A stretch of DNA of 32,000 bases. It comes from a virus. The position numbers were made by a program, and so were the translations under genes. Within the stretch, counting starts at the first letter, position 1. Every line of letters starts with the position of its first letter. Positions 1 to 14,455 of the stretch are shown here, one piece after another. Under the pieces are notes generated by a model. The model was not told the origin of the DNA and ran no database searches. It saw only the letters and a list, made by a program, of their open reading frames with translations. Location: the IMG/VR virus record IMGVR_UViG_3300015608_001846, positions 30,001 through 62,000 of that record, one strand, 5' to 3'.

Positions 1-752
1 TTGGGTGACATCTTGGTGATACAGACGAGTCGAAAGGCCCGATCGTAGTCAGCGGCGGGTACCCGCAGGAAGCCCATGGACGTCGTCCCATTGATTGCTG
101 CGTACTTTCCCAGCACCTTGGAGGGCGCCAGTTCACGTTGCAACTCATTGCGAATGTGTTCGGGCAACGTGTTGTACAGCTTGCCAGCAGACACCTCGCC
201 GGTGTCAAAGGCTTCCCACATCGATTCATCTAACATCGCGTCTGTCGTTGACCTGATGATCGATCGCTTGACACGGCCGAACATTTTCATCCCAATTGCA
301 CCAACCTTGAAAGAGGCGATCGAACCCAAGTCAGTCGTCACCTCCCATGACTTGATCTCTTCGTTGAGTCCAGGTAGGTCACAGTCAAACTGCGTCGGAC
401 CATCGATGATCGAGTGTCGAGTCCTTAGAGCCTTTTCGCCGTAGCCTTCGTAGCTCAGCGTCGGTTGCTGGTTGAGCGTTCGTTCCTCATCTGTCCACAA
501 CGTGCCATCGCAGTCCATCAATACGGTCAACAGCTGGTGCAGCGTCAAGCGATTGGGATCTTGTATTCGTAACAACCTGCCATCGATCAACCTGATCTTC
601 GTCTTTGCTGTTGAACGCTGTCGCGAGGCGCCCTTGACGTTGGTCGCAGCCTCCAACGACTGGAGCGCTCGTTGCCGCTGCGCCAACAGCTCTACCTTGT
701 CACGTTCAATGAAGTCCTTGAAGGTCTGACACCGATGATAGGTGCACTCCAT
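1..752 (-). CDS. hypothetical protein; 3' end runs off the window start
   Basis: Not in the supplied track because it has no stop in the window. My minus-strand translation is open from ATG 752 (GGAGG 5 nt upstream; alternative in-frame ATG 764) down to position 3: MECTYHRCQTFKDFIERDKVELLAQRQ...GKYAAINGTTSMGFLRVPAADYD. Its amino-acid mix is ordinary, whereas the overlapping plus ORFs 76..444 and 472..729 are Ser/Cys/Arg-rich shadows. No family recognised. Confidence 0.55.
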   Translation of the reverse strand, partial: MECTYHRCQTFKDFIERDKVELLAQRQRALQSLEAATNVKGASRQRSTAKTKIRLIDGRLLRIQDPNRLTLHQLLTVLMDCDGTLWTDEERTLNQQPTLSYEGYGEKALRTRHSIIDGPTQFDCDLPGLNEEIKSWEVTTDLGSIASFKVGAIGMKMFGRVKRSIIRSTTDAMLDESMWEAFDTGEVSAGKLYNTLPEHIRNELQRELAPSKVLGKYAAINGTTSMGFLRVPAADYDRAFRLVCITKMSP

Positions 753-833
753 AGTACCCTCCATGACGCCAATAATATCCACTGTAGGAATGGTGTATTC
801 CCACCTCGACCGCTCACAGAATATTTTGAGTGG

Positions 834-3512
834 CTACTGTGGGCCTGAACCAAAGGTGGCGAGGATAAAGCGAGGACGACCTTGGGTCACCTTTTCGAAC
901 TTCAGAGCGTTGGCCAACTGGTCACGTGGGATTGCCATGAAGCCTTGTGGGTTGACGATGAAGACACCGTCGACCTGCGAAAAGACGTTGTCGATCTTGA
1001 TGCTCTGGAACCATTCGTTGAAGAACGCCCGCGGGTCGTCGAACGCCTTGTCCTTCAACGTCGCCATCGCGATGTCGATCTCTTCGAAGTCTGTTAAGAT
1101 GTCCTCGCGGCCGGTCGCCTTCTTGACACGCTTGGCCACGTCGATGAAGGTTGATTTGTCGACGCGGGTCTCCTTGTCGTTGAGTGCAACGCGGGTGTCG
1201 GGCTGTGCAACGTCCTTCTTGTCGGGATCGATGCGGTTCTTGATGTTGCTGACGATTGTCAACACTGACCTGAGGTCGATGAACTTTCCCTTGCTGACCT
1301 CGCCCTTGCTGACGATCATCTCATACTCGTCTTCAACGAATGACTTGACAAACTCGAGCTTCTTGGCGTCGTCAGGTGTCAGGGTATCGCTCAGTTTCAC
1401 CTTGTCACAGACGACAGTGAAGTTTTTCAACTGTTGCATGACGCTGTTCAACCGCCGCCTCGAGTGTTCGAAGGCCTTGAGTCCTTCGGTTCCCGGACGG
1501 ATCGTCTCTGACTTGCTGAGCAGTTGTTTGACCTCCCAGGCCGACCCATCGGTCATGACAACGTCGTATGAGACACTTCCGCCTTGCACCTGTCCGCCAA
1601 AGACGTACGCTAGCCATTCTTCACCGGGCCCGGTACCCATCGCTGCCTGCTCGTTATCATCGCCTGCCGCCTTCGAGCCGTACGACAGCTTCGTACGTTT
1701 GACCTGTGCGGGCCAGGCGTGCCACTTCATGAATGAGATCTTGTTGATGTCCAGGACGCCCTTCTTGTCCTTCGAAGGCAGCTGTTTATCGTCAGTCGTT
1801 CGAGCTCCCGATCCTCCACGCCGCTCTCGACGGTAGCCTCTGACCTCAGGGTTGTATGCAGCATAACGAGCTTCAGCCTTGTCAAGCAACTGCTCGAGCG
1901 TCTCTCGACGCTTGGCTGCCAAGGACGGACTGTAGTCGTACTCTGGCTGTGACTTCAGTTGCTTGCGCGCCTTTTCTTCACCGATGCCCTGCTTACGTAG
2001 CTGAGCAAACGCAGCATCAAAGGCTGCTTTCTTAGCGTTGTTCTCATCCCAGGCTGCGAGGGCCGCTTTCGCTTCCGCGTACTTGACACGAGCTTCCTCC
2101 TCAGCCCGTTCGAACTCAGCACCTACACCCGTCGTCCCGTCCCCCGTGGCCTCAGCTAGCAACGCATCAAACCTTGATGACTTGATGACGTCTTCGACTA
2201 ACTGCGCACGCACCGACTTGCGTAGGTACGATTCACGCAGCGTGTCCTTGGTCTTAGACCTGAGGGAACCTTCTCCCATGTCGAGCTTTGGGATGCCCGG
2301 GCGACCGTACTTGAAGAGGCCCAGGATCTGGTGCGCCGGCGCAAATGCTCCGGTGAACTTGTAGGCCTGGCCCTTGTAAAAGAAGACGATGCCCTCCATC
2401 GCTGCACCGATGTTCTCAACGCTGCCCAGCTTTTCCATCTGGCGCTTGAGGACCTCCATGGCAGCCTCGTTGCCGCTGGCTTCAATGGCGCTGATCGCCT
2501 TGGACACCTGGTCGCGGAGGCGCTGGACCTCCGCGTCTGAATTGGCAATCAACGTCGAGCTGAGGCCTTTCAGCGCCTCGATGGCAAACCTATGGATGAC
2601 GTGTTCGATGGGTGCAACGAGGCGCTGCATCAGCTTGTCAGCGCCCTTGATGAACGCTGAGATCTCAGCGTGCTGTTCCTTCGGCGTCACCTTCTTGATG
2701 TCATTGACACTGGGAGCTCCCGGAGCTCCGATAGCCCTTTCAACGACAGCGACAGAGCCAGCTCGATCGAGCTTAAGCGAGCTGACCTCACGTGCGACCA
2801 TCGAACGCAGGTAGTCATAGATGTTGTTGTCGTCAGAGACGCCGGCCCGAGACATCACCGCGTCGAGGTCCGACAGCGCCTGCTGCACGATCGAACCGTC
2901 AGAGATCTTTTTGATGTTAAGAAGTGAGGGGCCCTTGACCCGCCAGTCCTTGGCCTTGACCGATTTTTGCATGTTGTCGATGTTGGTCGCTAGCAGGTCG
3001 ACACCCTCGACGTCGTTGACGTTTGTGACCTTACCCGCAGCATCGACGTCCAGGACGGGTGACTGGTGGAAGACGACGCTGTTGCTGTCGTAGTTGATCG
3101 TTCCCGGATTGGCCGTGTAGATGACCTCGACAGAGTACCAACGCGATCCATCGTGGAAGACCTGCTTACGTAGGCTAGGAGGTAGTGTCACGACGGCCTG
3201 GCGCAGGACGTCAAAGGCTTGGTTGAAGGCATCCTCCACGTTTCCTCGTCCGAAGAACTTCTTGGCCAGCCCGGCGGCGTCCATGCCGCCGCCCTTGATG
3301 TCACCACCGTTACGAGCGACACGAAGCTCCTTTCCAACGAAGGTGAACATGATGTTCATCCCATCAAGCTTCTCAGAGACCTTCTCCAGCTTGCCTTCAG
3401 CGGCTGACTTGATGACGTCTTTCAACTCAGCAAACGTCAACTCGCGGTTGTCATAGAGGTGCTGGAGGTGGCCCGCGGCGCCGCCTTCTTCGATGATGTT
3501 AAGTTGTTTCAT
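834..3512 (-). CDS. RNA-ligase-like nucleotidyltransferase, helical linker, PD-(D/E)xK-like nuclease domain (fusion protein)
   Basis: 892 aa, ATG 3512. The N-terminal ~400 aa carries covalent nucleotidyltransferase motifs in order: I SEKLDGMN (KxDGxN), Ia RVARNG, IV EGIVFFY, V AYKFTG, an Rnl2-style RNA ligase pattern. An Ala/Lys/Glu-rich helical linker follows. The C-terminal ~290 aa has GPGEEWLA...SYDVVMTDGSAWEVKQL, a D-x(n)-E-x-K signature. Motifs read by eye only. Confidence 0.5.
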   Translation of the reverse strand: MKQLNIIEEGGAAGHLQHLYDNRELTFAELKDVIKSAAEGKLEKVSEKLDGMNIMFTFVGKELRVARNGGDIKGGGMDAAGLAKKFFGRGNVEDAFNQAFDVLRQAVVTLPPSLRKQVFHDGSRWYSVEVIYTANPGTINYDSNSVVFHQSPVLDVDAAGKVTNVNDVEGVDLLATNIDNMQKSVKAKDWRVKGPSLLNIKKISDGSIVQQALSDLDAVMSRAGVSDDNNIYDYLRSMVAREVSSLKLDRAGSVAVVERAIGAPGAPSVNDIKKVTPKEQHAEISAFIKGADKLMQRLVAPIEHVIHRFAIEALKGLSSTLIANSDAEVQRLRDQVSKAISAIEASGNEAAMEVLKRQMEKLGSVENIGAAMEGIVFFYKGQAYKFTGAFAPAHQILGLFKYGRPGIPKLDMGEGSLRSKTKDTLRESYLRKSVRAQLVEDVIKSSRFDALLAEATGDGTTGVGAEFERAEEEARVKYAEAKAALAAWDENNAKKAAFDAAFAQLRKQGIGEEKARKQLKSQPEYDYSPSLAAKRRETLEQLLDKAEARYAAYNPEVRGYRRERRGGSGARTTDDKQLPSKDKKGVLDINKISFMKWHAWPAQVKRTKLSYGSKAAGDDNEQAAMGTGPGEEWLAYVFGGQVQGGSVSYDVVMTDGSAWEVKQLLSKSETIRPGTEGLKAFEHSRRRLNSVMQQLKNFTVVCDKVKLSDTLTPDDAKKLEFVKSFVEDEYEMIVSKGEVSKGKFIDLRSVLTIVSNIKNRIDPDKKDVAQPDTRVALNDKETRVDKSTFIDVAKRVKKATGREDILTDFEEIDIAMATLKDKAFDDPRAFFNEWFQSIKIDNVFSQVDGVFIVNPQGFMAIPRDQLANALKFEKVTQGRPRFILATFGSGPQ

Positions 3513-12729: not shown

Positions 12730-13277
12730 CAGATCCCCCTCGCTAGCTCGTGAAACCGAGCCAAGAATCGGTTCTCGGCATGCAACGGATCCCAGGGCAC
12801 GATGTTGAAGTCATAGGGTTCAAAGACGGCTGACATGCCCATCGTGCGGCCCCTGTCAATTCGCATGTCCCTAGCCTCAGTGACCGTCATACGATTGTCG
12901 ACCAATTTTACTGCGGTCGGCTCGCCTTGTGTGAGGCCGAACACGTCGCAGATCACGTTCATCAGGTGCGTCTCTGCCTCGCGGTAGAACGCAAACCCGG
13001 GATCACGCTTGACGGGTGACGGTACGTCAGTCAAGTACGCTTCTGAGGCATCGTGTAGCAGGCCCCACAACTGCAGTTCAGGCGGGCACATCATTGACAC
13101 CAACACCGAGTGCTGTGCCACCGAGTAGAACCTCATCAGGTGTCCCGCGAACCTCGCTGCGTTCGACAAGGCATGAGCGATGTCAACGATGCTGACTTCA
13201 TCCTGACGTGGGTCAAGCGGCCAGAACTTGAGTCCCGTGTACGTGGTGATGTAATCACCTCTGCGTTGCTCTTCCAT
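12729..13277 (-). CDS. HD-domain phosphohydrolase, YfbR-type 5'-deoxynucleotidase-like
   Basis: 182 aa. YSVAQHSVLVS and LLHDASEAYLTDVPSPVK closely match the E. coli YfbR block YHDASEVLTGDLPTPVK as I recall it. Confidence 0.7.
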   Translation of the reverse strand: MEEQRRGDYITTYTGLKFWPLDPRQDEVSIVDIAHALSNAARFAGHLMRFYSVAQHSVLVSMMCPPELQLWGLLHDASEAYLTDVPSPVKRDPGFAFYREAETHLMNVICDVFGLTQGEPTAVKLVDNRMTVTEARDMRIDRGRTMGMSAVFEPYDFNIVPWDPLHAENRFLARFHELARGI

Positions 13278-14412
13278 GCAATTGCTTGAATAGTAGGCTC
13301 TCTCGGCGAGCTAGTTCAAGACCAATTTCTTTGCCCACGAACCCCTCACCCACCAGGTCCTGACCTTTCACCGTCAGCTCATAGCTAGCAAATGACATCA
13401 ACATCGGGAACGATGGCAGGCCTCTGTTTCCCTGTGCATCGAACAGCTCCTCGTCAGTCACACGCAACCTGTTCTGACAACGCTTAAGTTCGAACGCTGC
13501 ATTGGTCGCATCCAGGCCTGCCAGGCCCTTGAAAAAGCACGTTCGATCGATCTCGTCAACGGTGTACTTCAAGTCGTGTAAGACCTGGCTTATCTTTTTT
13601 CGAGAATCATTAAGAATCACTGACAGGACGACAGGAACATTCGATGACTCAGGTCCAGCACTTGGCGCATGTGTGTCAGGGACGAGGCGGACATCGAGCC
13701 CCGGAAAGACCTGAGACCACATCTTGAAGCGTTCTAGAAGCGACAGATAGCAACGGCTCGACGACGAACCCGTGACGCCTTTGACAAACTCGTCATGGAT
13801 GCGTTCGGCAGCTAGTTCACTCAGGTCGTTGTCTGCTTCGATGGCACTCGCAGTCGCTGGATCGATGGAGAACCCAAAGCGAGCAGCGAACCGCAGGGCA
13901 CGCATGACACGCAATCGATCCTCACGGAAACGATCAACCGGAACGCCAACCGTTCTCACAACGTGATTCCGAAGGTCGGCCAGTCCTCCGACCAGATCTA
14001 CGACCTCATTCGTTGCAAGGTCGTAAAACAATGCATTGATCGTCAGGTCACGACGCTTGACATCTTCATCGATCGAGGTGAACGTGACATGCTCCGGTCG
14101 ACGACCCTCACCATGATCGATCCTGAAAGTCGCAATGTCGTACTCTGCGTTGGATCCAACCAACTTAACAACACCAAACGACTTACCGACAGCGGAGATC
14201 GAAAACCCATCTATGTCGTGGAGAAGTTCAATGACGTCCGTTGGGTGCAGGTTCGTCGCTAGGTCAATGTCATCGTGAGGCAAACGCATCAACGCGTCTC
14301 TGACAGCACCTCCGACGAGGTATAGCTTCGCACCTGCACGTTTGAAACGTGCAGCGATTCTATCGATGTCGCTAGATAACGAAATATCAAACCGCGTCCG
14401 TGAAGCCGACAT
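13255..14412 (-). CDS. tRNA nucleotidyltransferase (CCA-adding enzyme / poly(A) polymerase family)
   Basis: 385 aa from ATG 14412 (track start TTG 14418). Class II head-domain motifs: LYLVGGAVRDALM, DDIDLAT, ATFR, RRDLTINAL. No HD domain in this ORF. Confidence 0.85.
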   Translation of the reverse strand: MSASRTRFDISLSSDIDRIAARFKRAGAKLYLVGGAVRDALMRLPHDDIDLATNLHPTDVIELLHDIDGFSISAVGKSFGVVKLVGSNAEYDIATFRIDHGEGRRPEHVTFTSIDEDVKRRDLTINALFYDLATNEVVDLVGGLADLRNHVVRTVGVPVDRFREDRLRVMRALRFAARFGFSIDPATASAIEADNDLSELAAERIHDEFVKGVTGSSSSRCYLSLLERFKMWSQVFPGLDVRLVPDTHAPSAGPESSNVPVVLSVILNDSRKKISQVLHDLKYTVDEIDRTCFFKGLAGLDATNAAFELKRCQNRLRVTDEELFDAQGNRGLPSFPMLMSFASYELTVKGQDLVGEGFVGKEIGLELARRESLLFKQLHGRATQR

Positions 14413-14455
14413 GGACAAATGTTACCACCTTTGGGTGGCTTTTACATGTTGGTGT

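Follow-up and report, generated by a model that had tools for sequence, protein, structure and literature searches.

Whether a single phage polypeptide may both trim and seal nucleic-acid ends is the question raised by an open reading frame (ORF) of 892 codons in IMG/VR record IMGVR_UViG_3300015608_001846. The DNA analysed here, referred to as the window, comprises the 32,000 nucleotides corresponding to bases 30001-62000 of that 150,835-bp record, for which completeness is estimated at 45%. An initial annotation, made from the sequence alone, had described the encoded protein as an RNA-ligase-like nucleotidyltransferase joined through a long linker to a restriction-endonuclease-like domain. 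With moderate confidence we favour the reading that this fusion protein is a trim-and-seal nucleic-acid repair enzyme, acting most likely on RNA, in which a very divergent N-terminal ligase-like module would work together with a putative C-terminal nuclease of the E-D-ExK type.

The reading frame was found to be intact, with zero internal stop codons, as had been claimed. A search of 5.8 billion proteins located a 99.7% identical protein of 892 amino acids (aa) on other contigs. It also returned 17 more fused homologues (841-893 aa, 38-52% identity over ~99% of the length), which were drawn from independent JGI, ENA, NCBI and Logan samples. Since independent contigs and samples carry the same fusion, an assembly artefact was ruled out. 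All motifs quoted in the initial annotation were located in the translation, namely the ligase motifs SEKLDGMN, RVARNG, EGIVFFY and AYKFTG at residues 46-53, 64-69, 373-379 and 383-388, and the C-terminal motifs GPGEEWLA and YDVVMTDGSAWEVKQL at residues 628-635 and 649-664; given their invariance across the alignments described below, they appear to exceed chance. The reported composition of the linker was likewise confirmed, residues 428-590 containing 17% Ala and ~10% each of Glu, Arg and Lys. Residues ~505-600 of this connector match the N-terminus of stand-alone C-terminal-module proteins of 463 and 513 aa, and its second half therefore belongs with the nuclease module in split versions.

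The N-terminal module was modelled using AlphaFold2 supplied with a 90-sequence alignment, yielding a mean predicted local distance difference test (pLDDT) score of 93.2 and a predicted template modelling (pTM) score of 0.88. Invariant in this alignment are K48, D50, G51 and N53 of motif I, R67, E129 of motif III, Y141, D142, H149 of motif IIIa, E373 and G374 of motif IV, V376, F377, Y384, K385 of motif V, T387 and G388, and secondary structure assignment using DSSP placed the ligase motifs on predicted beta strands (43-48 and those given in Table 1). Downstream of motif V the model contains helices only (390-402 and 414-428) before the connector begins, and the oligonucleotide-binding (OB) fold domain with motif VI, which marks DNA ligases and capping enzymes, is absent from it. 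When the model was compared with 350,542 PDB chains using Foldseek, the best 30 matches were all ligases, although every one of them is weak. RNA ligases account for 26 of these, including Palaeococcus Rnl3 (8ucf, the best match, E 1.8e-3), T4 Rnl1, Pab1020, T4 Rnl2 and Naegleria Rnl (NgrRnl), and the other four entries are DNA ligases or annotated as ligases (Aquifex 3qwu, the African swine fever virus (ASFV) ligase 6imn and Pmar-Lig 6rar/6ras). Motif I aligns with motif I of the Pfam RNA_ligase model (PF09414), and profile comparison using hhalign paired the K48 motif with K39/K44 of two PF09414 families and E129 with the PF09414 GEW motif; with a KxDGxN-type PF09414 family, an alignment of 112 columns brought motifs I and III into register at a probability of 12.6% (pairwise E 0.0023). 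To judge from the model and the conserved motifs, the module very probably has the fold and active site of the ligase/capping nucleotidyltransferases; it is most akin to RNA ligases and lies within no defined family. Thus, of the ligase-like character first proposed, the canonical and invariant motifs and the best fold matches, all of them to ligases and mostly to RNA ligases, stand, whereas no profile assigns the module to a known ligase family. A capping enzyme was considered and rejected, because the OB domain is absent and the fold search placed RNA ligases far ahead of capping enzymes.

For the C-terminal module, a HMMER search over 1.84 billion cluster representatives gave 188 relatives, many being stand-alone proteins of 280-330 aa and others of ~450 aa that include the second half of the connector. 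Across 141 diverse members invariance is confined to E631, D650, E660 and K662, and the same quartet recurs in alignments of 106 and 42 sequences. In the AlphaFold model (pLDDT 93.8) E631 opens a helix, D650 and E660-x-K662 lie on opposite arms of a hairpin, and long helices follow before a C-terminal sheet that holds the conserved VDGVFIV. The order of elements assigned by DSSP (helix 42-49, strands 51-52, 62-63 and 69-74, helix 86-115 in the numbering of the C-domain model) fits an alpha-beta-beta-beta-alpha-beta core. F844, G849 and V853 (F255, G260 and V264 of the C-domain) are conserved in at least 90% of the 141 sequences, and in the topology suggested by the model the VDGVFIVN strand probably returns the chain to the core sheet beyond the helical insert. 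As modelled, the layout is that of a classic PD-(D/E)xK site whose core is interrupted by a helical bundle, and the invariance of the E-D-ExK quartet makes it probable that the module is a metal-dependent nuclease of this type.

Fold comparison of the C-terminal model with the PDB was dominated by helical-bundle noise, with local and non-significant matches to PvuII (E 1.5, the best) and to the N-domain of Eco15I; the PvuII matches (E 1.5-2.3) cover 57 columns in 1ni0_A and 44 columns in 2pvi_A, the latter at a root-mean-square deviation of 2.7 and 23% identity. In BFVD one uncharacterised relative of the module was retrieved (E 3.5e-7) together with a phage restriction endonuclease that matched over 40 columns, and a profile of the nuclease core alone matched no PDB sequence. 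The PD-(D/E)xK signature proposed initially is accordingly upheld by the invariant quartet and not by any significant fold or profile match to a known nuclease. This lack of a match, and the preponderance of helical bundles among the Foldseek results, would suit a binding or scaffold domain in which the E-D-ExK pattern has another role. We regard such a domain as very improbable, since invariance is limited to precisely the four canonical catalytic positions, the D-x9-E-x-K spacing falls on a beta hairpin after the Glu-bearing helix, and restriction enzymes are the only recognisable enzyme class among the fold matches, local as these are.

The association of the two modules was surveyed at 11 loci whose upstream flank reached 3 kb or more, or sufficed to reveal an adjacent ligase-module gene. 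Ten of the 11 show the modules as a fusion, as adjacent genes or no more than 3.2 kb apart (Table 1). The order of ligase module followed by nuclease module is kept from 28% to 67% identity, and stop and start codons often overlap; at L010 the nuclease module is 67% identical to the window's. The fusion in the window and the tightly packed neighbours elsewhere indicate that the two modules probably act as one complex. At the remaining locus (L018) two tandem paralogues of the nuclease module occur with no ligase module within 10 kb, showing that the nuclease module can work without it, and three complete phage genomes carry the ligase module and lack the nuclease module. Both observations lend some support to the alternative that the modules have separate jobs, the nuclease attacking host or competitor DNA and the ligase repairing phage or host RNA, for which there is also a jumbo-phage precedent in the proposal of Iyer et al. 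for HNH-Rnl2 fusions (PMC7824862). The conserved order over this range of identity, the overlapping codons and the repeated fusion all point instead to one complex, and we consider separate jobs quite unlikely.

From the observed ORF, its conservation, the predicted folds and the gene linkage, we infer catalysis, substrate and the order of steps of the trim-and-seal enzyme as follows. The nuclease module would trim a damaged or blocked break to leave a clean 3'-OH and 5'-phosphate, upon which the ligase module would accept AMP on K48, hand it to the 5'-phosphate and then seal, with E129, H149, E373-G374 and K385 serving as motifs III, IIIa, IV and V, respectively. The most likely substrate would be RNA, such as transfer RNA (tRNA), that had been cut by host defence nucleases. 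PD-(D/E)xK nucleases leave 3'-OH and 5'-phosphate ends, which are those that ATP-dependent ligases need. Trimming and sealing is favoured because the recurrent partners of the ligase module (nucleases and nucleotidyltransferases) mirror known break-repair sets, and RNA is the likelier substrate because the fold is nearest to RNA ligases, the OB domain is absent and the genome is rich in RNA repair genes (two PF09414 ligases and a CCA-adding enzyme).

A number of results weigh against the trim-and-seal reading, as do L018 and the three genomes in which one module occurs without the other. Among the Foldseek matches of the N-terminal module none has E ≤1e-3 and TM-scores are 0.16-0.25, values that are low in part because the helical insert splits the catalytic domain; to our knowledge, the solved Rnl structures contain no comparable insert. 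PF09414 scored 12.8-14.3 bits against a cut-off of 27 and matched motif I only, which places the module outside PF09414 as defined, and hhalign comparison with the genome's own Rnl2-like family was not significant (probability 0.2%). Searches of Pfam, PHROGs, NCBIfam and PADLOC with the protein and its family members gave zero matches above cut-off, and searches of PDB sequences using phmmer and profiles of the whole protein and of both module families gave coiled-coil noise only. For the C-terminal module, Foldseek gave no significant match to any nuclease in the PDB, and no family model was present in Pfam, PHROG, NCBIfam or PADLOC. No linked end-healing kinase, phosphatase or 2H enzyme was shown, and no kinase was seen nearby. 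ARAGORN identified zero tRNA genes in the 150-kb record, and one doubtful transfer-messenger RNA call (146745-147101). Finally, PD-(D/E)xK enzymes mostly cut DNA.

This last point favours a reading in which the pair acts on DNA, the ligase module being a nick- or break-sealing and perhaps replicative DNA ligase and the nuclease processing ends or flaps, as in LigD-type repair. The Fapy DNA glycosylase gene that lies between the two module genes at L008 speaks for the same reading, as do the DNA ligases (ASFV, Pmar-Lig and LigD) among the lower fold matches of the N-terminal module. Furthermore, a PF01068 or PF01653 DNA ligase was not found in the 150-kb record, nor was one found in two of the three complete ligase-module genomes (Mel-JY01 and LR756508). 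However, the record is only 45% complete, so that a DNA ligase could lie outside it, many phages rely on the host ligase, and LR756500 carries a LigA-like gene in addition to the ligase module. With the OB domain absent after motif V and RNA ligases as the best fold matches, action on DNA seems to us rather unlikely.

Further partners of the ligase module were recorded in the flanking DNA. A gene for a HIGH-superfamily (HxGH) nucleotidyltransferase of ~200 aa is found near the module pair at all ten linked loci, on the opposite strand where gene calls show it, and is followed by a clear Nudix hydrolase gene at nine and by a gene for a 338-aa protein of unknown function at seven; at L008 the Nudix match is only weak (E 0.001), though gene calling there places a Nudix gene next to the nuclease gene. 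The 338-aa protein begins with an N-terminal tag of the LRELV type. The 197-aa HIGH protein of the present genome shows full-length homology (blastp E 8e-11) to a CTP_transf_like domain. In other phages this domain is joined to the ligase module in one polypeptide, and it was matched in 16 of 57 ligase-module members. One such fusion, in Microcystis phage Mel-JY01, is annotated as "cytidylyltransferase like protein". An origin of the 656-aa "cytidyltransferase-like" relatives in cultured cyanomyoviruses was rejected, as the phage collection gave only Mel-JY01 and two uncultured huge phages. NCBIfam matches of the HIGH and Nudix proteins were all far under the cut-off, so that substrate specificity could not be assigned, and an established NMNAT was rejected as the identity of the HIGH neighbour, all matches being sub-threshold and limited to the HxGH region.

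The constancy of the HIGH gene, the frequency of the Nudix and 338-aa genes and the fusion of a homologous domain to the ligase module elsewhere can be taken to mean that the ligase-like module is not a polynucleotide ligase and instead joins the HIGH and Nudix proteins in nucleotide or NAD+-related chemistry, where it would transfer AMP or another nucleoside monophosphate. We judge this distinctly improbable: the family matches of these two proteins are all far from significance, the cassette may partly mirror synteny among related phages, and we know of no member of the ligase/capping superfamily that acts on small molecules only. A variant of the trim-and-seal reading would join ligase-like, E-D-ExK, HIGH and Nudix proteins in an undescribed four-enzyme repair cassette with a new logic, in which trimming would replace kinase/phosphatase healing of the T4 type, the HIGH protein would supply or recycle the nucleotide donor of the ligase (for example NAD+ from nicotinamide mononucleotide), and the ligase module would form a sixth or later RNA-ligase clade; this is speculative and, as a whole, unlikely.

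Proteins of 690-722 aa (P0020-P0064), the nearest relatives of the ligase module at ~60% identity, carry a tail in which G[ST]xGKK..GDxD is followed further on by a conserved Asp; as read by eye, this may be a nucleotidyltransferase signature of the Pol-beta type (GS..GDxD..D). A few others (P0085, 1085 aa; P0042 and P0056, ~956 aa) show, also by eye, an extra E..D..EVK region or a ParB-like DGHHR motif. Hidden Markov model searches linked neither the Pol-beta-like nor the second restriction-endonuclease-like tails to known families or to the window's nuclease module, and the tails are not in Pfam. In jumbo phages, RNA ligases pair with RlaP or CCA-adding nucleotidyltransferases (PMC7824862), and the partnership of the ligase module with HIGH and apparently Pol-beta-like domains recalls the RNA ligase-RlaP pairing described there.

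Table 1. Features of the fusion gene, its neighbours and the loci at which the two modules were compared. Positions are those of the window unless marked as genome coordinates.
Feature	Position	Strand	Basis or remark
Whole gene P0001, 892-aa ligase-like/nuclease-like fusion protein	834..3512	(-)	single ORF and 17 fused homologues
N-terminal module, residues 1-427, predicted divergent covalent nucleotidyltransferase of RNA-ligase type	2232..3512	(-)	AlphaFold2, Foldseek, invariant motifs
Motif I, SEKLDGMN	3354..3377	(-)	K48 codon 3369-3371, predicted AMP-accepting lysine
Motifs III (WYSVE129VIY) and IIIa (VVFH149)	3066..3140	(-)	predicted strands 124-131, 144-156
All-helical insert of ~165 residues (~200-365) between motifs IIIa and IV	2418..2915	(-)	DSSP helices 207-362, pLDDT >90
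Motifs IV (E373-G374-IVFFY) and V (AYK385FTG)	2349..2396	(-)	predicted strands 374-379, 382-386
Ala/Glu/Arg/Lys-rich connector, residues 428-600	1713..2231	(-)	composition
C-terminal module, residues 601-892, E-D-ExK (PD-(D/E)xK-like) family with helical-bundle insert	837..1712	(-)	AlphaFold2 model
Putative active site of the nuclease, helix with GPGE631, beta hairpin with YD650 and E660-V-K662	1521..1631	(-)
VDGVFIVN strand	951..974	(-)	model strand 260-265, C-domain numbering
Next gene downstream, 279 aa, DxDGT motif (LMDCDGTLW)	1..782, continuing past the window start; full ORF genome 29943-30782	(-)
Immediate upstream gene, 402 aa, 9 nucleotides from the fusion start codon	3522..4730	(-)	no family match
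HIGH gene	genome 29363-29956 (L002:1-620)	(+)	just before the window start
Nudix gene	genome 28736-29248	(-)	just before the window start
Gene for 338-aa protein	genome 27519-28535	(-)	just before the window start
CCA-adding enzyme	13255..14418	(-)	PolyA_pol match, E 1.4e-32
Split PF09414 gene (KIDGSN)	genome G000:C1:75839-76644 (L003:1175-1980), outside the window		E 1.6e-27
Modules fused	window, L006
Modules adjacent, often overlapping, ligase first	L007 (447 + 513 aa), L009 (690 + 463), L010 (438 + 467), L011 (708 + 306), L012 (421 + 451), L013 (400 + 328), L017
Modules 3.2 kb apart, one strand	L008
Ligase module absent within 10 kb	L018:8978-10912		two tandem nuclease-module paralogues, 314 + 303 aa

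A 322,887-bp contig represents a near-identical genome, from which the source was identified as an uncultured jumbo phage of ~320 kb. The fusion gene sits within a long run of co-directional genes, and no convincing promoter or terminator was found around it. Its neighbours are in keeping with a large phage (thymidine kinase, a thymidylate-synthase-like gene, dCMP deaminase, a CCA-adding enzyme, an Fe/Mn superoxide dismutase, a nitrilase-family hydrolase and a pterin-4a-carbinolamine-dehydratase-like protein). The CCA-adding enzyme, which the initial annotation had linked to the fusion as part of a possible tRNA repair toolkit, is genuine (Table 1); it lies ~10 kb from the fusion gene with no specific linkage, and neither it nor the genome's Rnl2-like gene is adjacent to the fusion gene. 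A tRNA repair role is plausible; the partners kept beside the modules, however, are the HIGH nucleotidyltransferase and the Nudix hydrolase. The absence of tRNA genes from the record is unusual in a phage with several genes of the RNA-repair type.

Homologues of the 279-aa DxDGT protein encoded downstream follow the nuclease gene at L009 and L017; its family search gave a sole, sub-threshold match to HAD-IIIC (E 0.077), so that a phosphatase role would be conjectural. The 402-aa protein encoded upstream has no counterpart at the same position in L006 or L009, and its weak matches to PADLOC Cas12 models (E ~0.002, residues 40-88) resemble coiled-coil noise. The same genome encodes two further PF09414 RNA-ligase genes, one of which, bearing KIDGSN as its motif, is divided between two abutting ORFs (167 and 101 aa), while its homologues are single proteins of 260-275 aa; the break stems from a frameshift, from decay to a pseudogene or from faulty assembly.

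In relation to known enzymes, the N-terminal module is closest to Rnl3 (Palaeococcus pacificus, and Pyrococcus abyssi Pab1020) and T4 Rnl1. These are its best fold matches, and like the module they have a KxDG motif I, keep motifs III, IIIa, IV and V in the same order and are devoid of an OB domain. Motif I of Rnl3 has the form KxDGxN. The module differs from these enzymes in that the fold match is distant (E ~2e-3, TM ~0.2), the catalytic domain is split by the helical insert, no flanking domain diagnostic of Rnl1 or Rnl3 was found and membership by sequence profile is lacking. Its likeness to PF09414 lies in the register of motifs I and III, and the EG...YKF pattern of motifs IV-V is similar to the one in the PF09414 gene at 75.8-76.6 kb of this genome. 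Restriction endonucleases of the PvuII type resemble the C-terminal module in the E...D-x9-E-x-K arrangement on a helix and beta hairpin and in the local Foldseek matches; they differ in that the module contains a helical bundle of ~150 residues within its core, the matches are not significant, no methyltransferase is adjacent, and the module is linked with the ligase-like gene (10 of 11 loci) and not with restriction-modification.

LigD of bacterial non-homologous end joining combines a ligase, a polymerase and a 3'-phosphoesterase. It is alike in uniting end trimming and sealing in one protein, and those relatives of the ligase module that carry a nucleotidyltransferase-like domain would give a comparable set for trimming, filling and sealing; LigD differs in being a DNA ligase with an OB domain and in its unrelated phosphoesterase and primase-polymerase folds. 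According to the account in PMC7824862, HNH-Rnl2 fusions are known in jumbo phages (Burroughs and Aravind, 2016) and likewise place a nuclease and an enzyme of RNA-ligase type in one phage polypeptide, although there the HNH nuclease is N-terminal, whereas here the E-D-ExK module is C-terminal, and the ligase family is another. Cutting and sealing in one polypeptide, which the initial annotation did not recognise as a known combination, thus has precedents in these fusions and in LigD.

Fusions of nucleases with ligases are known, as are partnerships between ligases and nucleotidyltransferases, so that the system is not new in kind. Three elements appear to be new, namely the ligase-like clade whose catalytic domain is split, the E-D-ExK family, which lacks annotation, and the persistent linkage of these with HIGH and Nudix genes. 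No published description of the split ligase clade, the E-D-ExK family or their linkage was found in a literature coverage that excluded Burroughs and Aravind (2016), the most relevant review. Each module represents a sizeable family whose members come from uncultured phages, most of them very large; the nuclease family numbers the 188 cluster representatives given above and the ligase family at least 179 proteins. If active, the ligase module would add a structurally distinct clade to the few types of RNA ligase, enzymes that are valuable as laboratory reagents, and its split catalytic domain would be unusual among them. The conserved pairing of the ligase-like module with the nuclease, HIGH and Nudix proteins constitutes a testable candidate for a new phage pathway that may undo the effects of host defences that cleave nucleic acids.

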